Assembly (NCBI GenBank): GCA_029717555.1
Contig: JAMDHS010000001.1
Span: forward strand, 558,001-622,000
Direction of reading: 5' to 3'
Source of the DNA: Peribolospora baueri
Lineage: Eukaryota
DNA length: 64,000 nt
Shown: one piece after another, positions 3,501-62,516 of the stretch
Numbering within the stretch: position 1 is the first letter of the stretch
Layout of the letters: the number at the start of each line of letters is the position of its first letter
Position numbers and translations under genes: made by a program
The notes under the pieces: model-generated
The model's database searches: none
Told to the model about the DNA's origin: nothing
What the model saw: only the letters and a program-made list of their open reading frames with translations

Positions 3501-6500
3501 CGCCACGGACGGACACGTGCCGCACGTCGTCTACATCCGCAAGATGGAAGACGTCATGAGTGTAGGCGGACGCTCCGGACAGAATCTCCTGCTTCTTGAG
3601 CGCCAAGATCTGCAGATAATCTCCCCCAATACGGAAGCTGACAGGAATGAGCTGGCGATAGTACCAGACCATGGTGACTGATGTGAACTCGAGCTCGATG
3701 GGCGCCGTAGCGATGGAGACTGCGCCAAGAGAAAAAAATCGAATCAATAGCCGCTCCACTCCACAAAAAGGCGGACAACTCACTCGTTGACGATGGAAGC
3801 GCGATGTTGCGACGCTCCACATACGTTTCCAGCTCGGCCAGTGAGTTGACGAAAATCTGCTTTCGGATAAACTCGCGGCTCTCTTTTTCCTTGGCTTTCC
3901 AACCGCTGTACATCGGCCGGAAATATTGCCTCGTCGCCGTGTTCGCGCTGAGGTTGATGCAGTGAACCAGATTGTCGCAGATCTCTTGCGGTACGACGGA
4001 AATGAAATAGCCAAGCCACTGTATGGGTGTTTGGTGATCTGGGCTCATGAGCGTCCAGTCACAGACAAGATCGAATTGCTTGGTTGTGAACTGGTCGACC
4101 ATCTGAAGAGGAGGAAAGTAAATGAAGTTAATCTGTGCCAAACGCACTGTACATGCACCTGCCGAGCCAACCTAGGCAACCGCACCTTGAAGATGTAGAC
4201 CAGCAGACCCTCGAAGTTCATGGTCTCCGCCCGCATATTTCGAGCGGCGTAATAGAGCACTGGGCGCCCCTCTTTGGAGGGAGGGCCTTCGTACAGGACG
4301 GCTTTGTAGGCTTCTTCGTTAACACTTCGGCCCGCATTCCGGCGGATTAGGTGCAGATAGGCCTCCTTCCCCTCTGCAGAGCCCAGCGAAAGTCCTACGT
4401 CATTTAGCGAGTCGCCCATCTCTGCCAGCGCGGCACAAAGCGTCTCGTACGTCCGTTTCCCTTCGCCCAATGAGCCGTCGACGTTTTTGCTGCTGGTCGA
4501 CTGTTCACGGCGGATGAGCTCGGTGCCGATCTTGTCGATGTTCTCGAAAAGGAATTTTTGCAGCGATCTCTGGTCCGTCTCGTCGATACCATAGCCGTAC
4601 GGTTGAATGCCGTAGCCGAGTGGCTCGTCGGCAGCAAGCACGCGCTGAGGATCGGGAGGATTGTCGGACACTTGGTCGAGGAACATGGTAATCTTCCACA
4701 CGTTCAACTTGAGAAAATCATTCAGGCCGGTCATGAAGGGCTCTTTGTGGCTAGGGAAGAGGTTGTTGCTGGCAAGCGTTTGCAATATTTTGCTGATGAG
4801 CAGCAAGCCGCGCCGGAGCTCCTTGTTGGTCACGGGAATGTTGATATCGATGATTTGGGGGGCAACAACGGCCGGGCTGATGAAACGCAGGAACATAAAT
4901 CCGCCAACGCCTTGGTAGCGAGAGAGGGGGAAGCGCTCGTCCATCAACATGCGGATATGCCGGCAAAGTTGACGCAGGACTCTGGAAAAGACGTGATCCA
5001 ATCAGCCGGAATGCACGAAAGACATCACACAACGCACGGAAAACGTGAAGGGTCTTCAACTCACGCAGGGACTCGTGGTGCCGAGGAGCAGATAACGTCA
5101 ATAAACGCTTGGGCCATTTCCTCCAGATGCTGCTGGTTCACAGCAGCCGAGTCGCTGGACCCAAGCTTGCCGGCATCGATCTCGAAGGACCACTTCGACG
5201 CTTTCACAGTCATCTCCTGGATCAAAGGTAACAGGATCGAACGGAGATACTCGTAGCCGTGCGTCCTTGCGAACACAGAGAGCAGGTGCGTCCTGACCGA
5301 GTTGCTCCTGAATACGAGTTCCTCCGACGTCGTGTTCGCCACCTCTTCGTCCAACGCCAACTTGAGGAACTTCATAACCCCACCCCGACAGTCGAAGATG
5401 CTAAGTAGCACCACGTCCATCGGTTCGACATCCCAGCCCCGGCAGATGTTGCAGATCGACAGAGCCAGCTGCATGTCCGGATCGCCAACCAGCTCCACTA
5501 GCCGGGTCTGCTTTGTCGAGACGGAAAGGCGTTCCAGATCGTCGAAAGCCGTGCCTTGGTTCAAGACGTTTGTCATAATCTGCATGAATGCCGTGCGAAT
5601 CTTTGGGTCGTCATTATAGGCCATGGAGAGGGAGTGTTGAAGGCCAGCTTCAATGTTGGAGGCGAGCAGGTTAGACAGGGCAACGATGGCATACTCCTTG
5701 AGCGGCTCGATATCCTTCAGCTCATCTCTCTAAAAATGCGATATAAAGAAGAACTAGATTGTCAGCCATCCTTTCTATATACCAATCTTCCCATTGTAGA
5801 ACGATACCAGAAGACGTACCCTCGTAATCGTAGATCGTGGATCCCTCCTGGCCCTGTTAGCGCACTCGGCCGACTCGAGAGCTCGAGCGCGGTTGAGGAT
5901 CTTGATAAAGTACTGGAAGTAAAGCGTGAAATGTCTCGCCTTTGCCCACTCGACCTTGTCGTCGAAGAGCAATGCATCCTCAGAAAGGAGTAAAGGCAGT
6001 TTGTCGAGAAGCATCGAAATTGCCTTCAGACAGGCAACGTCCAGCTCCCGTTGAAACTTCTCTGCCGTCTTGGATGCGTCCTCTGCCTGAAAACACAAGG
6101 CAGAATAACAGCTATTGAACTCACCGGCCGGCACAACAGAGAACGTGGCAACTACCACGAATCAGTGCTCACCAGATCTGATGTCCAGGTTACGAGCGCC
6201 TGGTAGAGGCGATTGCGCACGCGGACCTCGTTGGAGAAGGCAAAATAGTCCTTCTTGACCATGAGCGTCTCGCACAGGTGGCACATGGAGATCTTGACCC
6301 GGAGCGCGGGCTGACTCGCACCGAGGGCGTTGACGTATTCGACATAGAGCACCATGAGGGAGCCAATGTCCACCAGCCGGGCGACCTCAGAAGGCTCGTC
6401 CATACGCTTGAGCACTAGCTGGACGACACCGATCGACTGTTCGACGAAAACGGTGTGTATATCTGCAAGCTTCGGCATGCCAGTCGACTTGTCGAAGAAG

Positions 6501-12850: not shown

Positions 12851-15800
12851 TCATTGCCTGGCGAGCCACCGCACCGCGCGCCTATCGTCTTTGACCAGCG
12901 GCAAGACTTTTCGCTTGACCTCGGCGTTGTGCTCGACCACCCACTTGCTCTCTTCGGGCGAGAGCAGCGACCAGTCGATCAAAGCGGTGTCGACAGGCAC
13001 CTGCGTGATGCGCTCGAACCCCAGCCAGTTCTTGTCGCCCCAGTCGACTCGCGTAGATACTTGCTTAACGGCAATCAGGCTCTCCGTCTGAACGGAGATT
13101 GGATCGGCAAAACACGCATCACGAGTCCACTCAGTCAGCTCGACTTGGGTCGGGGCCACAAAAGCATCGGTGACGGAGCGCTTACCCTGATGCCAAAGTG
13201 ACCTTCCAAGTAGAAGCCTGGCTCGTTGGTGATGACTGAACGACCGGGTCGCGAGTCGGACCCAAGACACGAGAACGCATCAGGGGGAAGACGAGGCGAC
13301 TTTGAGCAAGCTCACAAAGTTTCTCAGCGAAGTCCCTTCTTTATTGAACATAAGCAGGACCAACCGTGTCCTTCCTTCAAAATGATGGGCTTCGAAGGGA
13401 TAGAAGACCCGAAGCCGGTGCCGCCTTCGTGTACGGTCGAATACGAGCCTTACAGTCCGACCCGTTCCGATGCAATGACCGTGGCCAAGGGCATGAGCAT
13501 TCCAAGTTCCGTTTCACTTCGCCAGCCAGCTCGTCAGACGCCCACGCACGGAGTGCGGCACTCACCGACGCCGTGACCGAGACCGTGCAGGAAATTCATG
13601 CCGTCTCTCCAGAGTCGGTTGCGCGAGAGCCTTCGTCATTAGACGGGAGGGGACGACCGACCGGAAGCACGTAAATGAGCCAAACTTTTCAACCATGTGA
13701 GCAGTGCGGGGTCACGAAGGGACAGGAGAGACGTATGGAAAGCATGGAAGAAAATGATTCTCACACGTCTAGCTGAGCACCGGCGGTACCCTCAGGAAAG
13801 ATGGCAGTGTCGATAGCGATGCTGTGCCGAGGTGAAGCGAGTCACAGAGAGGCCGCACATGAGCACTGGCGGCGCCTTCGTCACCAGCCCGTTGACCCTG
13901 CAGGGTCGAAAAGACATCGATTGGTCCAGCACCCACTGTCCCTGCAAGACCCTCGTATAAGCCCTCTTCTGCTCCTTGCTAGGTCTCCCAAAGTGCATCG
14001 TGCGCGTCGTATCGATCGTGCCGTCGAGGTATTGGACACCACAATCGCACACGTACGGAGTGTGGCGCGAGATGATAGCGCTTTCTGAGGCTGTTGGCTC
14101 GTAGTGCGGCAGGGCTTTGTGAGGGTTGGGGCGAGAGATGGGTGTTGAGACGAATGGTGAGCGGGACAAGAAGCCAGAAGGCACGAGTCCGACTGAGGTC
14201 GTTGAGGTGCGCTCGTGCTCACCAGCGTTAGGCCCCGTTGCGCTGATAGGCTCATAGCTGTGGCCGCGAAACTCCTTTCCTCCATGCTTCTCTCGAATCC
14301 GATATAGCTCGACCGCCGCGTCCCACTCTGACACCTCGGCCTTCTTGATCCGCACAGACTCGTCGAGCCACGCGGCCCATCGCACCCACGATGCCCCGTC
14401 GCGAAGGTAAGCCGCCTTGAAACCTTCGAGTTCCGTCGAGTTCTTAATCGCTTTGGCGTCTGTGATCGGACTTGAGGGGAGGACACAGACGTTCTCCTAT
14501 TGGACGGAGACGTCAGCCACGAGTAGGCCAAACGTGAGCACCAGTGCTATCCTGAGCTCGCCGGACTTCGAAATGAATCAGCCAAGAAAGACTCGCCTCT
14601 CCGGCAGCCTGCACGACGGCCCAGCTGACTCTCCCATCAACGACGAGCTTTGCCTCATCGGCCTGCCTCCAAACTTTCTCCCTAAGACAATCCCACACCT
14701 CCTCATACTCCCTCAATTCTACCCCCAGTTCCTCGTTCAAATAGCTTCTGGCCTCCTCCCCGATAAGGTCTCCGCGAACGAAGAGGATGGCGCGCGAAGG
14801 GGAGAGAACGAAGTAACCCGGGAAGAGTGGGTTGTACGGGATGCTATTCCCTCGCAAGTTGAGCAACCACGCCAGCTCGTCCAAGGCGCTCACGAAGTAG
14901 GCTGAAGTTTCCGGACAGGTGTCCGGCAAGTGGGAGAGGAAGTGGCGCAAATTGACCAGCTTCTGTGACGCGTGCAGGCCCGCGTACTTGAATGGGTGTA
15001 CCACGACTGGCTCCCTGGACTCGGTTGGCTTGTTATGCCAAACTTCGTCCACGAGGTTGATGGAAGGAGCAACCAGCTTCGCTTGGCGAGCAGTTAGCGA
15101 GGCGGACAGGCGTTTAGCCAGACCTGCGGGGCATATCGGGGGGGAAGAGAAGTGAATAAATATAGAGAGGATCGAATGTGGACAACACGTATGGGACGGA
15201 AGACGTCTAGTCAAGAGCGCCCGTTCAATCAGACAGATGAGGGCCAAAATGAGCTCACCATAGTCGCATAACCTAGCGTCTATGCCAACTTTGGTCCCTT
15301 TTCCGATACCCATGTCCTGCGCGTTCTGAGTGGCAATCCAAGCGTCCCAGTTCACCACGCCCCGCGCCCCGACCTTGTGCAGCGTCCACTCTGGGCCGAG
15401 CTGTTTCTCGGCTTGAATGTGATAGCGACCGTCGACAAAGAGATGCGCCGAGGGCTTTTCAGGAATAGCAAAAATGACGGCCGTCCCAGCTGAGCCATTA
15501 AAGCTATGGAGAAAGCGGGTAAGCCAAGAGCATATAGAGACGATATCAAAGGGGATACACACCCAGAGATGAAATGCCTCCTTTTGTCGGATTCGGCTGT
15601 GTACTCGCTACCGTGAGCATCTTCGCTAGGGACGATGCTGTCCGCGAGTAAACAAGATAAACGTAATCTGAGCTCTTGCATGGAGGTCTTATCGCAGGCC
15701 ATGTGCAGCATCACACTCACTAAACGTCCACGCCCTCCTTTCTCATCACCCCCCTTAACTCTTCGAGCCTTCCAGTGGTATCTTCCGGGACATCGCTTCC

Positions 15801-17354: not shown

Positions 17355-18237
17355 ATGTCTTCGGTGAGTCTGGTCGATTTCTGGCTCCCAGGTGGCGTGT
17401 TTCAGTGACGGATTATAGCGAGTGCGATATGGTCGGCACTCACGCATCCTTTTGTTTTTTCTTACGTGACCCTCGTCGCTCCTTTCGCGCCTATCTTGCG
17501 ACCGCGCCCTCTCTTGCCCCTTTTCTTCGCCCCCACGCCCATAGATCCAGCCGGTGAACCCGAAGCCTTTCCTACAATCCCAGACGGGGAAACAGGTGTT
17601 GGTGCGTCTGAAGTGGGGGATGGAGTACAAGGGCTTTTTGGTCAGCACGGACAACTACATGAACCTCCAGGTAAGTTCCCGAGTCTACTCTGGACGCGCA
17701 CACAACATTGGCCAGGCGCGTTCCAGCCTCGAAGTCCGGCTCTCCAGCGCGAGCGTTTGTGGGCCGATGAGGCCATGCTCTATGATTTGGCGGGCTGGAT
17801 GGCACGACCATTGCCTGGCCAGCGAGCGTGTAGGCGGAATGACCTTCCCCTGCTAGGATGCGCCCCTCTCTTATTGCTCGGACTCGCCCTCTGGCTCGCA
17901 TGAACCTTTCCGCTCTGATGTTCTCTTGAGCGTTCATCCACTGACCTTTACCTCCGTTTTTCTTCCTGCTTGACATGGGCGCTTATTGTAGCTGGCGAAC
18001 ACGGAGGAGTTCCTGGAAGGCAAGTCGCAAGGCCTCCTGGGAGAAGTTTTCATTCGGTGAGCTCTTTTGGATTCTGTGACATTCGTGGTCGTGATTGCCC
18101 TTGTCCTGCGCGCTATCGGCGTCGCTAACGACGCCTCCGTCTGCCTCTTCGGTCTTTCTGATCACCGGCCTGTTTTGGTTCTCGCGCTCAGATGCAACAA
18201 CGTGCTCTACGTCCGGGAACTCGGCGAGGAAGCCTGA
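17355..18237 (+). CDS. SMX3: Small nuclear ribonucleoprotein SmF, 4 exons (17355-17363, 17545-17670, 17992-18056, 18192-18237)
   Basis: Manual splicing gives [81 protein letters not shown], with GT-AG introns in consistent phase. Confidence 0.95.
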
Positions 18238-18631: not shown

Positions 18632-20265
18632 TCAAGAGAGCTGAGCCCCGAGCAAGGACATGACCTCGTCCTCGTCCATCTTTGCTCCGCTCTTCGCTGA
18701 GGCGTCGACGTCCTTGAGGAGGCCTCGCAGGGAGACGTCGTAGACGACCTCCTCGACCTTTTTGATGTCGTACTGGAAGGGGCGATAGAAGGATGGGTGT
18801 CAGCTGGGGAGGGGGCGCGAGAACATGCGGTGCGCCTGCCTACCTTGAGCGAGTCGAAGCTGTCAAGTGACGGTCGTGAGGATCATCGAGATTCGTCGGC
18901 AAAGCATTACGAAAGGAAGGATGGCGGGGGGCCGAAGGTCCACATCACACGCACCGTTTTCGCAGGCTGTCGTTCTTGAGGTTGAGGAGTTGGAAGCCGG
19001 CGTGAAGGTCCTTGACGAAAGACGCGATGCGAAGAGGGGAATCGAAATCTCCTGGGAAATGGAAAGGGCCAGGTGGTGAGTCCGCTGCAGGCCCTGAGGG
19101 TCTACGACGTCCTAGCGCATCGACACGACGTCGACGTTTGGGACACCCACCGAGAGTGACGCTGTTCACGGCGAGGCGCGAGAGCTCGTTGACGAGGGAG
19201 ATGAGACCCTGGAGATACTCCTCCGTCGACACGACGAAGCGACTCTGCCATTCGGGACGGACTGCGTCCGCCCATTTCGAGAGACGTCGCGGTCATTTGT
19301 CAATCGATGAGCCAAAATGGAGCGAGGAGGACTAACGAAGCGGCAGAGACGTTCTCACCGCCTAACACTTCGGACACCTGCTCCTTGCTCAAGAGGCCGC
19401 CCGTGCCCAAGTAGAAGCTAAAGCTGGCCGCGAAGATGGCCGAGGTGACTGCCTGAGACCAGATTTGATTCCACTGGAGCCGAGGCGAGGCATTGAGGCG
19501 ATGACGATGACGATGGCGAAGGAGAAGAATCGAGGCGTGACGGAGGATGAGTGATTTTCGGTCCCAAGTCTAGCGTACATGCGGCACCGTTCCGCACGCC
19601 AGGTCCGGCGCCGCCGATACGGCTTCGAAAGAGCCTCCTCGAGCCGGGGGGGCCGGGCGGACCCACCTTCCAGTACTCATTTTCGGGAATCAGCTCGGCC
19701 AGAGGCGTGATACCGCCGCGGATGGAAGAGAAGCCGGACGTCGCTTGTCGAACGAGATCGGGGACTGCGACGAGGGGAGCGGAGATGCGAAGGCGTCAGA
19801 TAAAAGTCAGGCCGCTCAACGCAAGGACGCCAGGCAGACCAATCGACGCTACCGCTTCCCTCCAGTTCCCCCCCCCCCTTCCATCTAAACCGGAGCAGAC
19901 GCCCACCTCGTGCGCTAGGCGTAGAATGTGCCCGATTGAGCGTGGCGAGAACCGACCGTGTGGCTTTGTCGAGCTCTTTCGTCCCCTCGCGGATTCGCTT
20001 GACGGCGGGCGGGCGGGCGGGCAGACGGTAGACGGTAGACGGGGGATTGTGAGTACGGTGGAAAGCATGAGAAGGGAAAGAAATGGCGAATGAGCGCGAG
20101 AAAAGCGGCCGAGCGAGGGAGCGAAGCCAAAGCCGAGCCAAGCCACGCCGGCCTGGGAGGCCTTCGTCCGGCCGGCCCACTCACCTCCCTAAGAGCCTGC
20201 TCCTCCTCCATCTGCCCCAAGAGGGGGGAAAAATCGACTTCGAGCATCGTCGGCGGGGTCGTCAT
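18632..20265 (-). CDS. TSN1: Translin, multi-exon, including a 16-nt micro-exon (18844-18859)
   Basis: EEEQALRE...IRE, STEEYLQGLISLVNELSRLAVNSVTLGD, FVKDLHAGFQLLNLKNDSLRKR|FDSLK|YDIKKVEEVVYDVSLRGL; stop at 18632. Confidence 0.94.
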
Positions 20266-20575
20266 GATGTACCAAGTTGTTGTCGATGGATGAAGCACGA
20301 CGGAAGAAAAATGGACGCAGAGCGACGGTCGACGCGAAGGATCGACGACCACTTATGCAAGCGATCCGTCTCATCTACGCGGCGCGCCTGCGAACCCCCT
20401 TCCTCCATCGCCAGGTATACCAAACCTCGTCGGACTCCTCTTTCTTCTTATTTTGAATACAAGTTACGATATCAAACATGAACGATGTAACAGGCGGAGG
20501 GGAAAGCCATGTTTGACTGCCAAACGCGACCGGCCAGCGCCGTACGCAAGGCCGGTGATGATCGATCATTCCACG

Positions 20576-21691
20576 CTACCTCGGCGGCGGTGGGAACTTG
20601 CCCAAGAGGCGCTTCCGAGGCTTCTCCACGGCCTCCCAGACCGCACTGAGGGAGAAACCTGCTATCACTTCGTCGCCACCTAGTGCCGCGGTGGGACGGG
20701 GACAGAAAAAGAGTGGATGAGGAGAAAGACGGTGTGGATCCGGTGAGCAATACGTCCCTCCCGGACTAGATCATCCCCGTTCGCAATGCCATCAAACGAC
20801 GGCCGCGCCTCACCCTCAGCACCATCTTGCCAAACAAAGTTTGCAAACTCGTCGAGGTCCATCTGGAAGGGCGGATAACCCTTCCTGTCCCAAGCCAACT
20901 CCGGCTGGTTGTGCTCATCGTGGAGCTCGGACATGATGAGCGGAGGCACAATCTCTGTCACACGTGCCTGCGGGCCCGCGGGGTCTGATTCGGTGGCCAG
21001 TTGGAGTTGTCTGCGGAGGGCGAGAGTGAAGTGGTGGACGGCCGCTTTTGTGGCGCAGTAGTCTTGAGTACGAAGAGAGAGAAGAGTGGTGAGCATTTGT
21101 CGTCTACGTCCTCCGCCATGCTCACCGAATCCCATCTCGCCGGCAGACAACTCGACTTCACCAAGCCAGAGTCGCTCGACCTGAACAAGGTGGACCTGGA
21201 GGTGAGCAGAAATGCATGGGAGTAGTGCATCGATCCTCCTGTGCACGTATGCCCTCTTCTTTCTGTGTTTTTGCCACTCGCTCGGCACGCCTCTTTCTCC
21301 CACCGACAAACTCAAGTGGAAGACCAACTACCAGTCCATCCTCCACCAGGTAAAGTACAGCTTGACGCACCTCAACCGCATCCGAGACGCCGGCAGAGTG
21401 GCCCACCTCGTCACCGTTACCAGTAGTTTGAGCCTTGTGCCCCAGCCGAGAATGCCTGGTGAGTCGCCCTTGCTTTCCCTTCCGACATTTTGTACGTAGA
21501 ATACACACCTCTGATGTCCGCCGTTGAGAATGATAGCGTCGCAAACGGCATCCTCGCCATCGTCGCCGACAAAGGCGCGCATAGCCTTGGCGACACTGTC
21601 CTCCAAAGCGTCCAAATCGGTCATATCAAACCGCACCGTCCTCACCCTATCCCTACCCCACTTATCTTCGATCTCCTTCAGCCGCTCCGTC
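20576..21691 (-). pseudogene. Short-chain dehydrogenase/reductase (DltE-like), 5'-truncated, with two internal exons inverted onto the + strand
   Basis: Minus exon ~21691-21509 (TERLKEIEDKWGRDRVRTVRFDMTDLD...AIILNGGHQR); plus exons 21147-21201 (QLDFTKPESLDLNKVDLE) and 21317-21458 (WKTNYQS...VTVTSSLSLVPQPRMP); minus exon from 21062 (DYCATKAAVHHFTLALRRQL...EIVPPLIMSELHD); probable last exon GDEVIAGF...FPPPPR* ending at 20576. No N-terminal GxxxGxG exon found. Confidence 0.85.
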
Positions 21692-21723
21692 AGGCACAGA
21701 GCTGCGGCGGGCTTAATTAAGCG

Positions 21724-21896
21724 GCCAAAATTTTTCTTCTTGCGCCCTTCGCCGGCGCGGCTTTTTTTGGGGGGCGTGTTTAGACACCACCCCTGCCGAG
21801 CACTACCCTAATGTCGTGTGACACATTACCGAGTGGAGCCAGAATTTTTCTTGCGCCCTTCGGTATCGCCGGCGCGGCTTTTTTTGGGGGCGCGTT
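21724..21896. repeat. Two ~57-59 bp imperfect direct repeats (21724-21780, 21838-21896), each with an internal GCGCC/GGCGC hairpin; transposon-subterminal-like
   Basis: gccaaaatttttcttcttgcgcccttcgccggcgcggctttttttggggggcgtgtt versus gccagaatttttcttgcgcccttcggtatcgccggcgcggctttttttgggggcgcgtt. Confidence 0.85.
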
Positions 21897-22008
21897 AATG
21901 CTGGAACGAAAATGGACTAAAGAACGAGGGGCCGGAGGGGCCGGGTTAGGGTTCACGTCATCCCCAAGAACGCTCACTCACGCCATCCGCCGCCGCCGCC
22001 GCCCGCGG

Positions 22009-22016
22009 GTATAAAG
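22009..22016 (+). promoter_or_regulatory. Probable TATA box of the secreted-protein gene
   Basis: GTATAAAG about 190 bp upstream of the ATG at 22204, followed by a pyrimidine-rich leader. Confidence 0.55.
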
Positions 22017-22203
22017 GGAAGACTGAGAGCCTCAGCAACTTTCTTTGAATCTTCGTCCCACACCGTTCCTTTCACCTTCTACCGAGCTGGGCTCGTTTCT
22101 CATTGTGGTCTTTCAGCTGGTCTGCTTCACCAGTTTTTTTCCTTCGGGACATCGTCTACCGTCTATCGAACCCTTAATCTCCGTGACGCCCCTTCTGTTG
22201 ATC

Positions 22204-22903
22204 ATGGCCACCTTCAGGAAGGTCGCGTTGGTCATTGCGGCCGCGGCAGTCGCGCTTGTCGCCCTCCCTCAGAGTCCTGCCAAAGCCCTCACCATCCCGG
22301 CTGACGTTCGGTATGAGCGTGCCCTTGCTCAGGACGGCGTCGTTGGCGTGCGTGCCGTGGCCGAGACGGACAATCTCCCCGCGTACATGCCTCGCTTCTT
22401 AGTCGAGGTGAGTTAAGGCGCATCGCTTTCGTCATTGAGACCGTCCGTCACGTCCGACGGTACGACTGGGCTCATTCGTCGGACATGTCCGCATTCTGCA
22501 CACTGCTTTCTTTCATCAGGATAATGTCATGGAGAAGAGAGGGTCCTACCCATCGTCTCCAGAGGTGGACGGCTTCGTCGAGGAGAAGCGCTGGCTCAAC
22601 GACATGAACAGCGCGCACGGTGGGGACAGGCTCATCGGCCGCAATCCTCCTTCGAGCGGAAGTCCAGCAGTAAAATCCTTGAAGGGGAACTTGCAGAAGG
22701 ATGACTGGACGAAGAAGCAGAAGGATGACTGGACGAAGAAGAAGGATCTCCTGACGAAGGAGAAGGATCGCACATACCACGCTTGGTGGAGTGAACAGAA
22801 GAACCCGAACAAAAACTATGACAGCATTGATGCAGCTAATAAGGCAATGGTAAATGCTAAAAATAGGCTTATCGCTCATTTGAGGAAGAAGCCCTCGAAG
22901 TGA
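22204..22903 (+). CDS. Orphan secreted protein, 195 aa, 2 exons (22204-22407, 22520-22903), with signal peptide, two KR sites and an internal KDDWTKK repeat
   Basis: MATFRKVALVIAAAAVALVALPQSPAKA signal-like N-terminus; phase-0 intron GTGAGT...CATCAG; EKR|GSYPSSPEVDGFVEEKR|WLNDMN...; basic C-terminus ending RKKPSK*. Confidence 0.8.
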
Positions 22904-24353
22904 ATACAATTCACCCACAGTAGCTATGGTGATCGACGCCACGGGTTATGAACTCTCTGAGCTGTGTTGAATCCTCCAAAAGTGGGGCCTTCACCTAGGT
23001 GGGTTAGACGACTCGCTTGTTATTGGAATCGTCGGCAGCGTGTTCCGACTGGAGCTCACACTCATCGTGCATTTGCGTTCGCATGACAACCCCCCATCAG
23101 ATCCTTGAACGACGTTATCCTGCTGGACGGGGGGGACCATGGCGAGTGTGCGCGGAGGACGCTCGTAAAGTCTCGATTGAAAATACACTGGTGATACCAC
23201 TTTTTATCATCTTGAACTTCGATCGTTATAATATCAATCATCACTATAGCTCATTAGAACGAAAGGACGGAAGGATGGACGTCTGATTAAAGAAAGTTAG
23301 CTGCGGTGGTGGTGGTTGAGATCGAACCCGAACTTCCTTCGCCGCTTCCCTGCGACGACGATGGTGAGAAGAGAGGGCGCTGGCTGGCAAGGTCTTATCT
23401 ATCACTCCCAACTGTTTTCGTCTAGCGGGCCGTCGACTACTGAGTGGGTTCTGCTCCGTCGTTCTCAAACTGTCTAATCCCTTGATGAGAGGATGGCGTT
23501 TCGTTTCTTTCTTTCTTTCTTCCGAGAGGCACCCGATCGATCCGTTTTCGCTGGCTCCATCGCATGGTTTTCTTTCTTTTTCTTAGTCTATATATATACC
23601 CAAGTCTTCGTCGGGGGCCACCGGCCCGGCCGCTCACGGTTCGGACGAGGAGTGAGAGAGAAAAGCCGTTCGCTCGTTCGTTCGTTCTCTATCGGGAGTA
23701 GAGGGAGCCGGCTGGAGCGAGTGGATTGGCAGGTCGACGAGTGTTGAGGAAGAAGGAGCGAGAGGAGTGTCTGGTCTGGTCTGTTCTGGTCTGGTCTGGC
23801 CTAGCCTTGCTGATCTGGCTGATCTGGCCGATACCCCGGCGAAAGCGGCGGGCGGCGGCGTAAGTGGTGGGCTTCTGGGCCGCTCTTTCCTGTTCGTTTT
23901 AGTGCCTCCACCCGGGCGGGCTATGGCTATGGATGGGACCAAGCAAGACTAAAGCGGTACCGCGGCGAAAGAAAAAGCATGGGCTCGCTGACCACATGCA
24001 CCGACTCAGCCTGCTCGCCCGCCCGATAGCCAGCCGGGTATCCGCCCAAAAGCCAGCCAAGCCAGCCAAGCCAGCCAGGCAGCCAGCCCACCGCCAGCTT
24101 CGGCCTCTTGAGGTGGGTGATCCGAGCCGAGGGGCTGCGATGTAACGGAAGGCCCGCGTGCCCGGTCTGCCCGCCTGGCCTTTTTCATCCTCGTCCTTAC
24201 CCCCTTCTGGTATCTTCAACGTGAACGAACGGGTGGAGACCTGGAGGCCAAGACGCCGTGATTTTCGATCGATCGATCGATCGGTCGAATTTGCCTGTCT
24301 GCCTGCGTGATTGGACTGACTTGACCGAAGTGAATTGGATTGACTGGGAACAT

Positions 24354-28400: not shown

Positions 28401-30448
28401 AACCCGCTCTTTTCGTTCAACAGCCTTGCCAGATGATCTGACGAGACCTCCCTTTCGGTTTCTTTTTTTGGTTTTTGGCACACAGAAACCTACTCATCTT
28501 ACAGCTTGTTCTCCAGCTCCTCGCCATCGTCGGTCCATCTGCCATCGCGGACGAACCAGAAAAGGTGTTGTCGTTTGTCAATTTTGTCCTCGACCGTCAT
28601 GTGTCCGGGACGGAATTGCAGAGGTCGTCCCGACTTGGCCAACTCATCAGCGAGGTGGAGCCAACAGAGATTGCTCTGAGCAGCTCTGCAGACGCCGGTA
28701 TCGCGACGGCAGGTGTCGAACGTCTGGGAGCGTCTGCGTCTTTTGGAGACGAAGAAGCAGCGAGCGGAGAAGAGATGGTCCGCACCGCGCTCAGTCTACT
28801 TTTGTCCGTTCTCGAGGGACGACCGGAACTTTCGACATCGAGTCTTCCCTTGCTGGCCGTCGTCTCGTCCAAACTTCCCGCCCTGTCCTCTTCGCCTACG
28901 TTTTCCACCGACGTGCGGCAGCTCGCCAGGGAGGCGTCCCTCGTATTGACATCGCGCTCCGCTGCAGAGGCCGCGCCCGGGAGCGGGGGCGGGCGCGGGT
29001 CCGAGGGCGACGACGAAAGCAGAAAGCGAGAACGGGCGATGGTGATCTACCGCGAAGCATTGCGGCTGTTACAAGATCCCATCATCCCCGTCCGAGCACA
29101 CGGTATCCACCTTCTCCGAGCACTGCTCGCTAGACCACCGCCTCCGGCGCGACTGTCGCCAAGCGAGATTGGACCGACGTCCTTTGGTCAACCCGCTCGT
29201 CGGCCGCCCGCTCGACGACCGGGCGGCCGACGAGCGGAGGAGGAGGACGAACGGCCTCTGCTCGCTTCTGAGCCGGCCTTATCCCCTAGCCTCCTCGACC
29301 TGTTCATCAAGACCATCGCCGACGATGAGAGCTATCTATACCTCAACGCGATCAAGGGACTGGCGGATATGGGCGACTTGTCGGGAGAGGAAGGGAAGAA
29401 GGTCGTCCGTGAGCTCGTGCGTATATATACGGGACGGCGGGACAATGGTGCCACTGGCTTCTCGGATCCCCTGGAGAGGGCGGAGGTGGACAAACGGCTG
29501 AGGGTTGGTGAAGCGTTGGCGGAGGTTATCAAGCGCAACGAAGAGTCGTTGAGCGTATACAGTGAGCAGACGACGGACGGCACGACATGCACATTTGGAG
29601 CGCGGACAGTATACGAAACGCTCACTTGTATCGTCTCTCTCTCCATAGCACCCCTCCTTATCCCTCCGCTCATGGCCGTCGTGCGCCAGTCTACCCTACC
29701 GGTCGTACTGCGCTCCTCGGCTCTCACCCTCCTCGCAACGTGTCTGGAAGCCTCACCTGTCGCAGTTTCTCGGTACGTGGACGAGCTCGTCGACGTTTGC
29801 ATCACTTTGCTGGTCGTCGAGGGCGTGACGCGGCCAGTGCGTCGCGGTCGCAGCAAGGATGCAGAAGGGCCGCGAGGTGAGAAGCCTGAGTCGACGGGTT
29901 ATCAAGCGTCCAGAGGGACGACGTCGAATACGGCAAGCGAGAAGGCGAGTGACGCCGGACGGTCCGAAGCGAGGGCTGCGGAGGAGGCGAAGGAGGACCT
30001 GCTTTCGGAACTCACGCCGGCAGAGGTGGAACGACTACGCGTGGCGGAGGCGGAGGAAGAGGCGCCGACGACGACGAGCGCCAAGCGACAGCCGACGCTG
30101 CGACGCGGCGCTTTACTCTTCCTCACCGTGCTCCTTCGGGCCGCCAAGGAGCTTTTGGAGGGGACTGGCGAGAGGGGAGGAGAGCTGGGGCTAGGTGGGC
30201 TGAGGTTGCCCGGCGGCCGTTTCCTGCCCCTGGACCCTGAGAGACGCACCAGCACTACGGAGGGTGGAGCGGGACGGGAACGAAGGATGATACTGTTCCC
30301 GCTCGACCGGGTGGAGCGCACAAAGGAGCTGATGGGCTATCTGGAGGCGATGGACGAAGACGGCGTCGTCAGGGTCCAAGCTGCCGAAGTGAGGCGGGAG
30401 CTCGAAGAATGGCACCTCGTCGTCCTGCATGCCGGTCTCTCTCTGTGA
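25434..30448 (+). CDS. RTP1: RNA polymerase II assembly/import factor Rtp1 (TANGO6 family), multi-exon
   Basis: C-terminal motifs YREALRLLQDPIIPVRAHGIHLLRALL, DDESYLYLNAIKGL, DKRLRVGEAL, LRSSALTLL, LRRGALLFL and DEDGVVRVQA. ATG at 25434 (MSEREESVRKL) is inferred. Confidence 0.85.
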
Positions 30449-39333: not shown

Positions 39334-40671
<1,338 letters not shown>

Positions 40672-51592: not shown

Positions 51593-51972
51593 TCATCGTG
51601 TGTTGATCGCCTCGAGCGCCTCGAGCGTCGTGACCGAGTTGCCGCGGATGACCTGTCGGTTGTTGTTCGGAATGAGGCAGTGCGTGGAGCATTAGCGAGA
51701 TGTGAACTCGGATGCGGCCCCTAGTAGTGCCCCTTCCACCAGCGCCTCTCCTGTTGCCTGACCTCTCTCTCCGGCGCCCGAGATCCACTCACCACCGTCC
51801 CACACTTCTTCTTCTCAGTCGGATCCGTCTCCTCGAGCGCCTCGTCAAGGACGAGGTTGAGGAAGATGTCAAAGCCTCGGAGCGTGCCGGATATTTTGCG
51901 TCCGCCCTGGACGTGCACAAACACGTGCTTGTCAAGGTATCGCTTGAGTTCGGGCTGCGATGCCTTGGACAT
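51593..51972 (-). CDS. SMX2: Small nuclear ribonucleoprotein SmG, 2 exons
   Basis: MSKASQPELKRYLDKHVFVHVQGGRKISGTLRGFDIFLNLVLDEALE...GTV|VIRGNSVTTLEALEAINTR*. Confidence 0.95.
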
Positions 51973-52192
51973 GGTCGTTGTGTGTGTGGATGGAGTCGTC
52001 GTTGTTAAAAGTGGACGTTTTCGACGACGCGATGAACAACGGCATGCGCAGACGAAGACTTCGATCACGTGATGCGATCGGCGGGCTTCCACGTATGTCG
52101 AAACTTCCATTCCCCACTTGCAACTCGCTGTGCATTCTCCTCCATTCCAGGTCCTTCGTCTTCGCCCCGAATCGGTTCCAGTATCGGACACA

Positions 52193-54137
52193 ATGTCTGC
52201 TTTCCCATCGACGGAAGGTGCTTCCAAAGCCGCCGATGAGATGGTACTCTCCAACGCAGGCGAGCAGAACGGTGTCGGAGAGGCCGCGCCTTCCAAACCC
52301 AAGCGAAAAGTGGTCGTCCAGGCTGATCCAGCCCACATTCGCATGGACGATCCGATACCAGCATTGCAGTCTGCAGGAGAGGGGAGCGACTGTGAGGACA
52401 GTGTAGATGGGAACGTAGAGGAGGCGGAAGAGGAGGCATCGGAGGAGACTATGTTGGCTGCGTTGCCGGATGATACAGACGTGAGCGATCGATTTGACCT
52501 GGGACCTCTCCGCGAGTGCGTTCGAGTCAAATGTTCCGCTCACACTTTGCGCACGTCTCGTATTTACTTTACTTTGTCCCCATCAGGAAATTGATTTAAG
52601 TCATTCACGCCTAAGCGGTTGCTCGCTCTCCAAACTGGGCCTCGCAAGGTTCGGCCCCTTCCTCCACCGCCTGGTCCTTCGTCAGAATGAGATCAACAAG
52701 GTACGCGTGGACGACTTTACGCCGCTGACGGAGCTGCGCGAGGTGGACTTTTACGACAACAACATAAAAAAGCTCGAGCCTGGCGGACTGGGAAAGCAGC
52801 ATTTGTTGGAGTGAGTTTTGAGGACTACTCAGTGGCTCAACGTCCATCGACGGCCGGCTTGCAACTATTCAGCTGGTAGCTAATATTGTCGCCTCCTTCT
52901 TTACCGCACTTCATCCTGGCCTTCGCAGGGTTCTTGATCTCTCTTTCAACGCGATCCGATCCCTTGACGGCTTGGCAGAGTTCCTCCATCCTACACTCTC
53001 TTCCGAATTGAGTCAACTACACACCTTGTACTTCGTCCAGAACAAGATCACCAGTATTTCTGGGCTGCAGACTCTCGGTGCTAGGTTGAGGAGCTTGGAG
53101 CTAGGAGGTAACCGGATTCGAGTGAGTGGTAGCAAGCTCGTTCCGAGCGAGAAGAGATCATAATTTGCTCCCAGCGATTTTGGCCACTCTGCTGAAATGC
53201 TTGTTCTCGTCGTACCTCCATTTCCCCCCCAACGCATCTCCGATTCAACAGGAGATCGAGGGTTTGGATGAACTAGTGAACCTTGAGGAGTTGTGGCTCG
53301 GCAAAAACAAGATTACAAAGCTCCAGGTCAGTCGAGTCCCTTCTCGCTCTCTCCTCGACTTGCACTCCTTGCACAGCTGACTTCTTTATACACGCCGTCG
53401 ATTTCTATACATAACCGACAGGGGCTTTCCAAGCTTTTCAGGTTGAAAATCCTGTCTATTCAGTCGAACCGTATCACCAAGATTGAGGGTCTGGACGAGT
53501 TGACATCGCTTGAGGAGTTGTACATGAGCCACAACGGTCTGACTAAAATCGAGGGATTGGACAAATGTGTGAGTTTCTATATGTCGGTCTTTTGTTCGTC
53601 ACCTTGCTGTCCTCCTGCCTCGTTCGAGATGTGCACCAGAAAGGTGATTGACTGCGATTCTTCTGGCCTCAGAAAAACTTGCGAGTTTTCGATGCCGCGG
53701 CGAACAAACTGGAGAAGATCGAGAACGTGTCCCATCTAAGCAAGTTAGAGGAGTTTTGGGTGAGTGCGACAGATGCGTAGACCGATCATTCAGCTTGCAT
53801 TGTGGATAGAAGCATTGATGCTTTTTTTTTCGCAGGTCAACGACAATTCCATTCCTGACCTCTCCGATCTAGAGTCTCAACTCGCGCACCTCCCCAAACT
53901 TGAGACCGTCTACCTGGATGGTAACCCTTTGCAGAGGAAGGAAGGTTCTTCATACAGACGAAAGGTCAAGCTCGCTTTGCCCCAAGTCAAGCAGATCGAT
54001 GCGACGTGAGTGTGTCCGCCTAGACTACGATGTTAAGCGTAAGGCAATCTGCGGGCGCCTGGGGACCTAACAAGGAATCTATCTGCCCTTCTGCCTCCAT
54101 TGTCGTTCTTGTTCCCCCTGACAGCTATATTCGATAA
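52193..54137 (+). CDS. SDS22: PP1 regulatory subunit Sds22 (leucine-rich repeat), multi-exon
   Basis: LPDDTD|EIDLSHSRL, LVLRQNEI, DFYDNNI, LDLSFNAI, LYFVQNKI, LELGGNRIR, LWLGKNKITK, LSIQSNRITK, TVYLDGNPLQ, YRRKVKLALPQVKQIDAT|YIR*. Confidence 0.95.
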
Positions 54138-55437: not shown

Positions 55438-55678
55438 GGCGGCCTTGGTGTGACGACGGTGGTGGTGGCCAAGACCTGCTGCTCTCCAACGCCTGGCGCG
55501 GTCGCGGCGAATCGCGGGTCTGATCGCCGGTCCGAAGAACGTCCGGTCCCGACGGCGATGGCGACGAAACGCTCGCATCGTCTCCTCCAACCTCAAGCCG
55601 CTCTAGATCGACTACACTCGCCCTGTGTTCGTGGCACGAGGCGCTGGGCGGCGCACACGCTCAAGGGAGGACGAAAAG

Positions 55679-57845
55679 ATGCACGACTTTGTGTCACTCG
55701 TCCTGCGGCGGTACTTCGAGGCGACGGGATGGAATGAGCACAACTCGTATCTCAACCTCACCGCTTCTTCGCGAGGTGCGTCAAGCCGAGCTCGAACGGC
55801 TCGACTGCTGCTGTTGCCGTTGTCAGGCATGGATCTGACTCTTAATCGCATCATTGGCTCGTTACCCCTGCACTCAGCGATCCTCGACTTTTCCGTGCCT
55901 CCCGGCCTTAATTTGCGCATCTCCAAGTCTCCCACCCCCCCCTTCTTCACTTCCTACTCCCTTCGCGCCCTTCCGACACTTAGCGGCTCAGTTGGTTATA
56001 TCTTCACGTCATGCGACAATCCAGTGAATATTGGCGGTGCGAGTGGGAGCGTACGCCTCAAAGACGTGGTGGAGCGTTTCAGGACGTTCGATTTTCCTAA
56101 GCGACCCGAAGGCAAGGACGCCGTTTGGCAGGGTGGCCAGCGCGTAGATACCAGAGGTGATTATTGCCGCCTGTCTAACTGAAGAGGAGACGGTCGTTCT
56201 CCTTGAAACGCCATGAAGACGTCGTCTCCTGACCCGCTTGCTTACTTCGTCAGACTATCTCATGTACGGCTGTCTGTACATCCCCACCTCGCGACTGGAC
56301 GCTTTGTACACTACCCGGCTCTCAAGAACCTGGCAAGCCGTTGTCGCCGCCATCTCCGACCCACGCCCGCTTTCGTCTTCTTCCAGCTCAGGCGCGACGC
56401 CGACGTCCGGCGGTCCTCCAGCCCTCCCGGGGGCGAGTAATGTGACGATCAACCTGCAGAACGATACCGGTCGCTGCTGCACCGAGTATAGTTACAGCGC
56501 GGACGACGGCATGTGGGGCATTCGGACACTTTATAACTTTGGCTCCCCATCCTCTGAGAAGCCAGCGAGCGGTATGGGTTCAGCAGGCGTCAGTGGGAGC
56601 ACGGAGAAAGACGATGGGCGGCAGAAGAGGATTGATGAGGAAGAGGCTATTGAAGGCGGCTTAAGAGGCCATTTCAGTGCCGGTGCTGAGATGTACTTCA
56701 GTGCCAGAGAGAAGAGCGCTGGATGTGAGTGTCACTTCTGTCCCTGTAATGCACGAGTGCCCACGGCGAGAGCTCATGTTCCTTTCTTCACTTGCTGGCC
56801 TTGTCGTCATCTCAGTGTCCACCGGGGTCCGATTCACAACCCTTCCCGACCAGTCTCTTGTCTCTCCTTCCCTGGCTTCCTCGCCATACTCTCAGAATGT
56901 CCCTTATTACCCCTCTCAGCCACCGACGACCATCACCGCCACTTTCAATCCCATGATGGGGCACATCAGCACTGCCTACGCGGCCCGGATGAGTAGAAAT
57001 TTTTCGGTCTGCTCACGGTGAGTGTCATCAGGAGGTCCGGTGTTCTCAAGAAATTTTCTTCTCCCTAACCTATGATGCCGTCCTTCTATCCTCGCAGCTT
57101 CGACTTCAATATGTATTCTTACGACTCGGACATCACTCTCGGAGCTGAGTGGTGGATGCGCTCCAGACCGAGACCGCTCCACACTATCGCACCCCAGACG
57201 CGGGATCCATTTTACCAGGAAGCGTCATCCAAGCCAAAACCTGTACCAGCGCCGTCAGACCATGACGACACGACATCTTCCCAAAGCTCCTTATCGTCGG
57301 GCCTTCCGGAAGCAGACGTGACCGAGGCCTCGTCGAAAGCACACATGCTCAACGCCGGAAATCCCAATGGCCTCAACGCAGCATCTGGCTTTTCTGGTGA
57401 AGAGCGAGAAGAGCGAGAACTGAGTGCCCAGTGGAAGAGGAAGCCTGCCGCATGGTCTCTGAACAAGCGTGTCGGCGAGGAAGATGTGGACAGAATAGAC
57501 GGCGTGAGCTCGCCCGCCATTACGGCGCGGGAGGAAAAGGGGAGGGAGGAGGTTAAGCAGGATGAAGGTATCATTGGTGTGGTCAAGGCTCGGGTAGGGG
57601 CGAATGCAGTGAGTGACTCTCGATCATTGCTCCTTTTGGTAGCCCCCTTTTGGCTCCTAGCTCACCCATATAACCGCTGTATTCTCGTCACTTTGCGCTC
57701 CAAGGACGTCGCGTTGATGTGGGAAGGGAGGCTCTACAACTGCCTCGTTTCGCTTGGTGTCGTGGCCGACCTCGGCTCTCGACTTCGGCCCATCCGTGCC
57801 GTTGGATTGGATCTACAGTACTTTAGCTCGAGCGACGCTGAGTGA
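55679..57845 (+). CDS. MDM10: Mitochondrial distribution and morphology protein Mdm10 (ERMES/SAM beta-barrel), multi-exon
   Basis: MHDFVSLVLRRYFEATGWNEHNSYLNLT, ILDFSVPPGL, DYLMYGCLYIP, FSAGAEMYFS, STGVRFTTLP, NPMMGHISTAY, FDFNMYSYDSD, ALMWEGR, GLDLQYFS. Confidence 0.94.
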
Positions 57846-58690: not shown

Positions 58691-59527
58691 CCGTTTGCTC
58701 TGGCCTCCATGGCCGTCTGCCCAATTGAATGGTGTTCTTAACTATTTTGCCTTCTTCGACGGCATGACGCTGGCAGGACTCGCCCCTTTTTCCGGAATGT
58801 TGCAGCTGGGCTGCTACGGGTTCTACATCATCAAGATCGCCCACGACGAGAGGAGCTTGGGCGGTCGAGCCCCGCAGGGGCTAAGGTTCAGGCAGCCGAC
58901 CGACTTGAAATGAAAGGGGCACAAATGGTCGGTTCCGAGGCGTTTCCTCGCAATTGCAATCGAAATCGCCTCTGCCATTTACAGATGCGCATTTTACTAC
59001 ACTATCTGTCAAAGATGTAGGACTGTTTTCTGACCATCTGTGATGGAGAAAAAATATTATCCTTCCCCGGCGATGCTCCAGGACGACCTGGCCTCGGCCA
59101 CAAAGCGGCATGCCTCTCCTTACCTCGTCTCTCTCGGTGTAAGCTCTGTGGATGAGTACGGTTGTTCTGGACACGGCCAAAGATGTGGCTTGCTCGTATT
59201 CTCTTCGCCTTGGGTCATCGAAGTGTGTCGAGTGCTTGAAATGTCCATCCATCCTCGTGTATGCGACGATTGACTGATAGATAAGACGTGGTCGGTCCGG
59301 AGCCCGTCTTGCGGAACCGATCCCGACTTGGGCGGATATCTGTCGGATATCTTCGGCCTTTGCACATCGGCGGGTCTGCTTGACTCAGGCGAACCGCCCA
59401 CACGCGACTACTCCACCTCCTCATCCTCGTCAGTGCTCGGCCACCGAACAGCAAGCGTGGGCGACGACTGTGCCCCCTGCTCTCCTGGCCTGGTCGAGAG
59501 CGGGCAAGTCGAGTTGCACTGTCAACC

Positions 59528-62516
59528 ATGGCCCTCAGCAGCTCGTTTTCCGACAACTCGGAGCAGGCTCCCCTCCTCTCCCGGTCCTCTTCCGCCACGA
59601 TCGTCGGGCCTCCACACAGCGATGCACATCCCTCTTACCAGTCCATTACCACGTCCGACGGAACCGTCACTCACGACGCACGCAGTGAAAATGGACATGA
59701 CGTGAACGCGTCGATAAATGCGGACAATGCGACGAAGCCAAAGGAGATGAAGGTGAAGGAGAGCCCGCCATGGAGCAAGCTGGTCCCCATTCTCGCCAGC
59801 CTTTGGATGGCCGTCTTCATGGGCGCGTTGGACGGTGAGTTGTCACGAATCGCGTGGCGCTCCTCCGCAGGCGGCCATGTAGTCCTCGAATCGTTCAAGC
59901 ATCGGAAAGTGAAAACAGACGTCCTTCGTGGATATCTAACTCGACCTGTCTGCGTCGTCAATCGCTCTACACCGTCAGGCACGATCGTCGCGACCCTCCT
60001 ATCCTCCATTTCGTCCTCCTTTGATGCCTCCAACCAATCCAGCTGGCTGGGCAGCTCCTACCTCCTCTCCGTTTGCTGCTTCACTCCGATCTACGGCCGG
60101 CTGAGCGACATCATTGGCCGGAGGTCGGCCATGCTCATTGCTCTTGGGTTTTTCATCGTGAGTGTGTTATGTCAAACATCTATGATAAGGAGTGCGAGTC
60201 GTGCTTGATGAACTTTTTTTTGACCTTTATGTGACGACGTTGAAACGCCTGTCTCTTTTCGCCGTCCCGTAGCTCGGAACCATCGCTTGCGGCTTGGCCC
60301 CGTCGATGCAAGCCCTCATTGCAGCTCGAGCGTTGGCAGGGTGAGAAGGAAGCACATCCCACTTTACCGGCTTCCATTTTTGAAAAGGCGTTCCTGACAC
60401 ATTTCTCCCGTCTGATTTGTGATCTCTCTCTTGTCCTCTCTTTCCCTCTCCGAAGCGTGGGCGGCGGCGGTATGATGACTTGCTCGTCCATCATCGTCAC
60501 CGACCTCATTCCCATCCGCAAGAGAGGCCTCTATCAGGGCATGGCCAACATCCTCTTCGGCGCTGGAGCCGGTCTGGGAGGACCGCTTGGCGGGTTCTTG
60601 AACGACACCAAGGGCTGGAGGTTTGCTTTCTTGGCCCAAGTGAGCAAACCACTCTCTTCCTCGCAAGGTCCAGTGAAAGGCCTTCGACAGTTGTAATCCT
60701 TCAGAATTCGAGCATATGCATCATTATCATCGTGCTCACCTTATTTCCGTGCATCTCCTGGAACCCTATGCAGGTCCCCTTCCTCATCCTCGCGTTCGTT
60801 TGCGTCTCTATCTTCGTCAACGTTCCTCTTCCAGAGTCTGGACAGACGCTCCGAGAGAAGCTCGTGAGTGCAGCTCGTGGCTTCATCGCCCATGAACCAA
60901 TCTTCTTTTTGGTTGCCTATTTGAATTTCGACCTGATCGAATTTGGTCTATCGCTTTTCTTTCGCTGGGATTCACGGTCGCACAGGCACGCATCGACTAC
61001 CTCGGCTCGCTTACGCTGGTCATCACAATTGCCTCGCTTCTCCTCTCTCTTTCCTTCCTCTCCTCCGAAGATATGCCCTTCACCCACCCGCTCGTGTGGG
61101 GTCTCTTCGTCAACTTCATTGTCTTCGCCATCGTTTTTGTAGCCGTCGAGATCTGGGTCGCAAAGGCGCCTGTCATGCCCATGAGACTGCTACGGCAGAG
61201 AACGCCGCTCTTCGTTTCGCTGAGCAACCTGACTTGTGTGAGTTGAAGCGCCACCGCGCTCCTTTTGGTGGAATTGTTTGCAGCCACCCAGCCTGTCTGC
61301 TCCGCAGTCGCTCATTCCTGCGTTTCACTCGTCTGTCACAGTCCGGCGGCGCCTTTGCGGTCCTTTATATGTACCCCATGTACTTCCAGGCCGTGCAACT
61401 CCAATCAGCAAAGGTAGCAGGTGCGCTAGTTTATTCGATCTATCCTAGCTCCCTTTGAAGGGCCTCGCAGTTGTCCTCTCGCAGAGCTTCGATCACCTCC
61501 TTATACCAGAATCCTCTCCATGGCAGGGTACCACCTGATCCCAAACTCAGTAGCGCTCTCGTTGGGCTCAGTGGGAGCAGGCCTCTGGATGCGTGCGACG
61601 GGCAAGTACTGGAACTTCAACGTCTTCTGCGCCATTCTTCCTGTCATCAGCTTCTCGTACATTTGCACGTGGGGGGAGAATGTACCCAAGATGCTCGAGT
61701 ACATCGCCATCGTGCCTGGCGGTTTTGGCGTCAGCAGCATCATCACGACCACCTTGAGTGAGCGACGCGCGCCTAACACGGTGGAAGAGGTTTTGGTAGG
61801 ATGTATCCGGGCTCATCATTGTCTTTTTGTCCATCCTCTTCGCACAGTCGCCCTTATCTCTGGCGTTTCGCGCTCCGATCTCGCCGTAGCCACTGGAGGT
61901 ACGTCACCGCTTTTCCTAAACATGGCTCCCGCACTTGTTCCCGTTGTCTTCACCGGAAAAATTGGCAGGCTTACAGGCTTTTTACCTTGTCGGAACCGCA
62001 TCCAGTGAGCTATCTGTTCCGCTCGACGGGTCAGGTCCTCGGCGTGGCCGTGTCCGGCACTCTCCTGCAGAGCCTGCTAACCTCGCAGCTCAAGGAACGC
62101 ATCACTGGCGAAGGTAGTAATGAGGTGCGTGACAGACCGGCTTTCTCCGCGATCCTACACTTTCGGTTTCCAGAGGGGATCGGATTAAATGGCCGTTGTT
62201 CCCCATTTTGTTGCACCACGCTGAATTCACTTGTTCACTGCCGCGCTTGCAGATCATCTCCGCGATACGACACAACGCTTCTATCGTGCCCACCCTTCCA
62301 TTGGAGCTTCGCAACGCTGCAGTGGAGTCGTACCGGCATGCGCTGCGCGCCGTGTTCATCTTCATCACCGCTGTCTACATTGTCACCTTCTTGCTCTGCC
62401 TTCCCATCGGCGAACACGATCTCGGCGGACTAGGGGACGAGAAGAAGGGCTGTGGAACGACGCGCGAGGAGGGTGAGCGGCCGGCTGAAGAAGGGGGGGG
62501 CGAGAGGGAGGCTTGA
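59528..62516 (+). CDS. Major facilitator superfamily transporter (DHA2/Vba-like), multi-exon
   Basis: FMGALDG|TIVAT, SWLGSSYLL, TPIYGRLSDIIGRR, TDLIPIRKRGLYQG, GLGGPLGG, GWRFAFLAQ|VP, SYLFRSTGQVLGVA. Confidence 0.92.

Follow-up and report, generated by a model that had tools for sequence, protein, structure and literature searches.

Exons on both strands of a short-chain dehydrogenase/reductase locus very probably reflect a fixed micro-inversion within a 5′-truncated pseudogene

How can successive exons of one gene lie on both strands of a short stretch of DNA and still join, split codon by split codon, into a single reading frame? The question is posed by positions 20576-21717 of the 64,000-nt stretch of DNA analysed here (the window), where an earlier note had described a short-chain dehydrogenase/reductase (SDR) gene with two internal exons inverted, preferring a recent intragenic inversion that killed the gene and naming an invertible exon cassette and inter-strand trans-splicing as alternatives. 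The GC content of the window is 52–64% (2-kb bins), its introns are short and of the GT...AG type, and the neighbours of the locus are intron-split housekeeping genes assigned by Pfam (RasGAP, M24 prolidase, two LSM, RTP1, Ras GTPase, MDM10 and an MFS transporter). On its GC richness, short introns and gene content, the window is probably fungal.

4048-5729, 13795-15607, 17545-17853, 28442-30445, 39731-40459, 51724-52539, 55607-57842 and 59384-60693: housekeeping genes

Judged by similarity of its predicted protein, the locus is the remnant of a classical SDR (adh_short, PF00106) gene on the minus strand. The window’s single exons are too short for direct assignment to a family, and the exon designated D below matched PF00106 in Pfam at E 0.01 with 15.7 bits (cut-off 26.6 bits). 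A word-index search with exon D among longer proteins returned no match at E <= 0.001; an exhaustive HMMER scan with the same exon returned 36 matches, the best full-length one being 55% identical, and all four of the full-length homologues scanned belonged to adh_short (E 4e-30 to 5e-34). Ten full-length homologues (256–334 aa) were used for tblastn and for a family profile, the latter being run against the stop-to-stop pieces of all six frames of the 64-kb window. By both approaches, the homologue residues, taken from N- to C-terminus, fall in turn on the minus, plus, plus, minus and minus strands of the window, as the profile matches and the tblastn segments of one homologue (P0007) illustrate:

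21807..21331, minus strand: profile positions 39-95, E 9e-7
20989..21222, plus strand: profile positions 92-114, E 5e-4
21206..21496, plus strand: profile positions 111-156, E 3.5e-8
21327..20683, minus strand: profile positions 154-233, E 3.7e-24
21720..21508, minus strand: P0007 residues 54-120, tblastn
21145-21213, plus strand: P0007 residues 120-142, tblastn
21323-21448, plus strand: P0007 residues 141-182, tblastn
21063..20809, minus strand: P0007 residues 186-268, tblastn

The remainder of the 64 kb held no other profile match better than E 5. Exon D was matched on the minus strand by all ten homologues in tblastn, and exon B and/or exon C was matched on the plus strand by at least seven of the ten (P0005, P0007, P0010, P0011, P0019, P0022 and P0033). 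On these alignments, a strand pattern that keeps the order of the family lies far beyond chance. The protein rebuilt across the strands is, as had been claimed, one open frame in which TNY, TSS and YxxxK (here YCATK) stand in register with the ten homologues; we take these motifs to be the SDR catalytic N, S and YxxxK. The joined pieces align to the family from the ‘ERL’ helix, which follows the second beta strand, to the C-terminus. The N-terminal glycine-rich cofactor-binding motif of SDRs is TGxxxGxG, which in the homologues reads GATSGIG. We speak of a remnant of a family member, and not of a working member, because profile positions 1-38 are unmatched and the gene is cut at 21691/21692.

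All exon and intron boundaries given by the earlier note within 20576-21717 are present in the sequence. Together with a revised last intron, they yield five surviving coding parts:

21509..21690, minus strand: exon A, first surviving coding part (TERLKEIEDKW...ILNGGHQ + AG; donor GTGTGT at 21508)
21147..21201, plus strand: exon B (A + QLDFTKPESLDLNKVDLE; cag acceptor, GTGAGC donor)
21317..21458, plus strand: exon C (WKTNY...PRMP, i.e. WKTNY...VTSSLSLVPQPRMP + G; aag acceptor, GTGAGT donor)
20814..21062, minus strand: exon D (after aag; AC + YCATKAAVHH...WQDGAEG)
20576..20679, minus strand: exon E (GDEVIAGFSLSAVWEAVEKPRKRLLGKFPPPPR + stop codon; preceded by the 134-nt intron 20813..20680)

Each part is backed by alignment to the family. 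Exon A is covered by minus-strand tblastn segments (21687/21720..21508) and by profile positions 39-95, exon B by a plus-strand tblastn segment (21145-21213) and profile positions 92-114, and exon C, which contains the conserved TNY and TSS motifs, by plus-strand tblastn segments (21308/21323-21451/21457) and profile positions 111-156 (E 3.5e-8). Exon D carries the YxxxK motif and a PPL..SELHD..NQPEL block and is matched most strongly (tblastn E down to 1e-21; profile positions 154-233, E 3.7e-24), its end having been set from the family alignment and the in-frame model. Exon E is placed by tblastn with P0005 (residues 251-277 on 20674..20594) and by the alignment, its profile match being weak (E 21). 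The last intron was re-placed at 20813..20680 (134 nt), outside the coordinates of the earlier note; with this intron removed, a C-terminal surplus of 20 residues in the family alignment is gone, and the revised model is in frame.

The codons split between the strands do read R and D as claimed, and the R aligns with the conserved QR of the family. When the block holding exons B and C is returned to its original orientation, the introns measure 61, 115, 73 and 134 nt. At the four affected junctions all eight splice signals are intact, with matching phases.

To place this arrangement against relatives, we turned to public sequencing runs containing the sequence of 20500-22000: four DNA runs of one study, two from organism A and two from organism B. 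Sampled words of this region were all present in the organism A runs, and 22% of them were present in the organism B runs. Contigs of all four runs were aligned to 19000-23500 (4.5 kb). The 61,357-nt contigs of organism A (runs X1 and X2; depth 113 and 91) showed 0 differences from the window over this stretch; these runs may be the window’s own source data, and their agreement is a test of the assembler and not of biology. The possibility that the real DNA is collinear and that the block was flipped by an assembler bears directly on this point, as the sole holders of the inverted form may be those same source data. We dismiss it as extremely unlikely, because a second, independent assembly of the two runs reproduced the inversion in the same contig at even depth with no competing contig, and because the inverted repeats at the junctions, 7 nt at most, fall short of the k-mer length that could mislead a graph assembler.

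Organism B is ~96–97% identical to the window where it aligns, and its contigs change strand within the gene. Record 13 (9353 nt, run X3) aligns on the plus strand at 19000-21089, on the minus strand at 21101-21486 and again on the plus strand at 21494-21691, and this pattern recurs in record 19 (3593 nt, run X4), so that the strand-change joints 21089/21486 and 21101/21494 are each seen in one contig in each of two runs. Similarity is high on both sides of the joints and between them: the left flank is ~96% identical (89 other letters and 67 gap letters in 2,090 nt), the segment at 21101-21486 has 10 other letters and 16 gap letters in 386 nt, and that at 21494-21691 has 6 other letters in 198 nt. 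Since 21101-21486 switches strand relative to both flanks, the gene is collinear in organism B; the comparison with the orthologous locus that the earlier note had called for thus bears out its reading. The organism B form is taken as ancestral because the whole protein family is collinear, and the window form would be the derived one, a polarity that rests on that collinearity. A wider search for close relatives of exon D in metagenomes gave 238 pattern matches, 0 of which were confirmed by tblastn.

21101..21493, plus strand: inverted block, ~393 nt (organism B alignment on the opposite strand at 21101-21486)

Within the inverted block lie exons B and C with the complete intron 2 between them, bordered by the 3′ part of old intron 1 next to exon B and the 5′ part of old intron 3 next to exon C. 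Exons B and C, intron 2 and their splice signals remain intact on the plus strand because the cuts fell inside two short introns. On that strand, an ATG at 21118 opens a frame that includes exon B and, via intron 2, also exon C and a short read-through tail (21118-21499); this is possibly a predicted ORF of ~88 residues created by the inversion.

The two breakpoints are confined by the organism B alignment to intervals of a few letters:

21090..21100: left breakpoint interval, in old intron 3, between organism B blocks ending at 21089 and starting at 21101
21487..21493: right breakpoint interval, in old intron 1, between organism B blocks ending at 21486 and starting at 21494

Both breaks are intronic, as had been proposed, and lie ~10 nt or less from the positions first suggested (21103 and 21487). 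Between the aligned blocks organism B has 19 and 3 nt and the window 11 and 7 nt, a difference of 4 nt, which means that a handful of letters disappeared or were added at the junctions. Either the flip was not perfectly clean or small indels came afterwards. No flanking inverted repeat of note was found: a comparison of the two 81-nt junction windows gave inverted matches of 7 nt at most (TCTACGT at 21103-21109 and ACGTAGA at 21494-21500), and no longer arms flank the inverted block. A short direct repeat (CATTTGT / CATTTTGT) lies directly left of each junction. We take neither the 7-nt match nor the direct repeat as evidence of mechanism, because an inverted match of at least 7 nt was reached by 60 of 300 shuffles. 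We infer that the inversion arose by breakage with end-joining or by a replication template switch, and not by recombination between repeats.

These junctions also bear on the proposal of an invertible on/off cassette, in which the block would flip to restore or break the frame. Yeast flip-flop switches, such as the mating-type switch of Ogataea polymorpha and the FLP/FRT system of the 2-micron plasmid, depend either on long inverted repeats or on a recombinase of their own that acts at specific target sites. The SDR locus resembles them in that the orientation of a segment decides whether a gene can be expressed, and differs in that neither long inverted repeats at the junctions nor, among 72 ORFs scanned, a recombinase was found. 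With both breaks intronic, flipping the block back would restore the exon order, and rare forms would be invisible in contigs, which drop rare variants. Nevertheless, we consider a cassette exceedingly improbable: the flanking inverted repeats do not exceed 7 nt, a length within reach of shuffled sequence as noted above; 0 recombinase or transposase domains were detected in 72 ORFs scanned (Pfam, E <= 1e-5), namely 71 of the 111 ORFs of at least 150 aa plus one of 103 aa, a scan that intron-split or distant genes would escape; the organism A contigs of both runs show the inverted form only; and a flipped-back gene would still be without its start codon and cofactor-binding motif.

This loss of the 5′ end, likewise reported in the earlier note, proved to be real and is located by two lines of evidence, the organism B alignment and the family profile, whose limits lie at most one or two bases apart:

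21691..21692: 5′ truncation and synteny break (organism B similarity ends at 21691; SDR similarity begins at 21690)

Past 21691 the organism B contigs (records 13 and 19) run on for 2.1–2.7 kb that are unlike the window, and the window sequence upstream of ‘TERLKE’ has no relation either to SDR proteins or to the corresponding sequence of organism B. Profile positions 1-38, which in the homologues include GATSGIG and a TGRR turn, found no match in the 64-kb window (best E 1.5), and there is no ATG in the open frame upstream of the homologous part. With the truncation, ~40–45 residues were lost from the N-terminus, and with them the start codon and the glycine-rich motif for cofactor binding.

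With the truncation placed so near to the inversion, the two lesions might be one complex event, through clustered breaks or replication template switching, which would be a variant of the pseudogene verdict. Three breakpoints relative to organism B (21100, 21493 and 21691) fall within ~600 bp, and a single event is therefore plausible; the unaligned junction letters (11 and 7 nt, against 19 and 3 in organism B) fit non-homologous or templated repair, and the direct repeat stands ahead of both inversion junctions. Against this, nothing dates the lesions to one moment, short repeats like those at the junctions are expected by chance, and the organism B comparison spans 4.5 kb, too little to gauge how dense rearrangements are in the background. 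We regard a single event as possible but doubtful.

The sequence to the right of the truncation has features of its own. An element of ~55 nt occurs twice just past the junction (21724-21779 and 21838-21890; 114–117 nt apart) and has a GC-rich hairpin (GCGCC...GGCGC) with T7 G5 behind it. The two copies share an identical 25-nt core that is found nowhere else in the window, and a paralogous 1227-nt contig of organism A also contains a 23-nt piece of the element (21851-21873). Apart from this local repeat, no further copies of the sequence right of the truncation were found in the window. An all-AT octamer, TTAATTAA, lies at 21713-21720 in otherwise GC-rich DNA, ~20 nt from the truncation junction, and 250 nt beyond it GGGTTAGGGTT (21943-21953) amounts to one and a half telomere-type units. 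The window contains no longer array of such units and no telomere repeat TTAGGGTTAGGG at up to 1 mismatch. Further on, a small gene on the plus strand (22206-22903) begins in the manner of a signal peptide (MATFRKVALVIAAAAV...) and carries a tandem repeat of 24 nt (22693-22741). The stretch 22049-22590 matches other contigs of both organisms at ~87%, which makes this gene a member of a multi-copy family; no closer organism B copy was found within the compared stretch, and its longest ORF matched no Pfam family.

What, then, could the SDR locus still encode? Exons B and C total 197 nt, so that a minus-strand transcript skipping the block (21509 joined to 21062) would be frameshifted and meet early stops. 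No enzyme would be made in cis because the gene has lost its start codon and cofactor-binding end and has its middle part encoded on the opposite strand; judged from the gene model, either lesion by itself abolishes the enzyme. The rebuilt remnant is nonetheless free of stops over 243 codons. Because its pieces still read as a single open frame, the inversion is recent. The open frame is little argument for function, as neutral simulations at 1%, 1.5% and 3% divergence (5,000 replicates) left 77%, 69% and 47% of sequences stop-free, respectively. The locus is in all likelihood a pseudogene.

Trans-splicing between the strands into one SDR message would keep the gene alive in spite of its arrangement. 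In Drosophila mod(mdg4) some exons lie on the opposite strand, and the SDR locus is like it in having the exons of one protein on both DNA strands. For mod(mdg4), the literature describes common 5′ exons that are trans-spliced to alternative 3′ exons with promoters of their own, and conserved intronic motifs that promote the reaction (PMC4387717, PMC6237743, PMC13490949). Relative to the system so described, the SDR locus differs in that two internal exons are affected, the 5′ end is missing and the arrangement is absent from organism B, the one relative compared. The intact splice signals and matching phases at the affected junctions speak for trans-splicing. They have to be set against a young event, with an ordinary collinear gene in a 96–97% identical relative; against a message that, even if correctly joined, would be without an in-frame start ATG and profile positions 1-38; against an intact frame that is expected by chance at this age, as in the neutral simulations; and against the need for two trans steps plus an upstream coding exon that was not found in the 64-kb window. 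We hold mod(mdg4)-like trans-splicing to be vanishingly unlikely. That the inverted exons are still used in some way, by low-frequency flip-back or by both-strand trans-splicing that yields a message for an N-terminally truncated SDR-like protein, perhaps starting in the newly adjoining upstream sequence, is likewise very unlikely.

The best explanation, and very probably the correct one, is a fixed micro-inversion in a 5′-truncated SDR pseudogene. In this scheme, a block of 393 nt (~21101-21493) would have flipped within a minus-strand SDR gene, with cuts in two short introns, and a second lesion would have cut the gene at 21691/21692; the outcome would be a fixed, non-programmed micro-inversion within a recently dead gene. 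The reading preferred in the earlier note, a recent intragenic inversion that killed a gene now missing its 5′ end, is thereby upheld by the collinearity of organism B, the intronic position of the breaks and the reality of the truncation.

Inversions of mesosynteny range from gene scale to chromosome scale and have their breaks between genes. Frequent intrachromosomal inversions are part of the mesosynteny that Hane et al. 2011 (PMC3219968) describe for filamentous ascomycetes, whose chromosome evolution bears inversions as a hallmark. The SDR locus would be comparable in that local gene content is kept and orientation changed in a fungal-looking chromosome; it differs from mesosynteny in being sub-genic, with both breaks in introns of one gene. 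At the other end of the size range, small inversions that separate close relatives are a well-documented phenomenon: Potapova et al. 2022 (PMC8755829) report 59 human-chimpanzee micro-inversions of 17–33 nt, all flanked by perfect or near-perfect inverted repeats, and discuss template switching and microhomology-mediated break-induced replication as their origin. Like a micro-inversion, the SDR block is a short stretch that, without having moved, reads as the reverse complement of its counterpart in a close relative, nothing more than a few junction letters having been gained or lost; with inversion-disrupted pseudogenes it shares that a gene is inactivated by the inversion of a short segment. 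It differs from the events of PMC8755829 in that it is 393 nt long, takes in two exons and is flanked by inverted repeats no longer than chance would give. Among the open-access literature matches listed, none was a comparable fungal intragenic-inversion pseudogene, which is not proof of absence in print. Measured against these sources, the SDR case adds a new example to a type of mutation already known, being larger than the PMC8755829 events and smaller than those of mesosynteny.

The locus thus offers a clean, sequence-resolved sub-genic inversion with both breaks in introns, dated against a 96–97% identical relative that keeps the ancestral order. Its use lies in the correction of annotation and in a data point on small-scale rearrangement of fungal genomes, with no new mechanism involved. 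Sub-genic inversions mislead gene predictors, which here would predict two or three separate, unrelated pieces divided between the strands, and in a young pseudogene such as this one an intact frame with perfect splice phases is no proof of function. If the three breakpoints do stem from one replication-based complex rearrangement, the locus would furthermore be a sequence-resolved fungal example of such an event.
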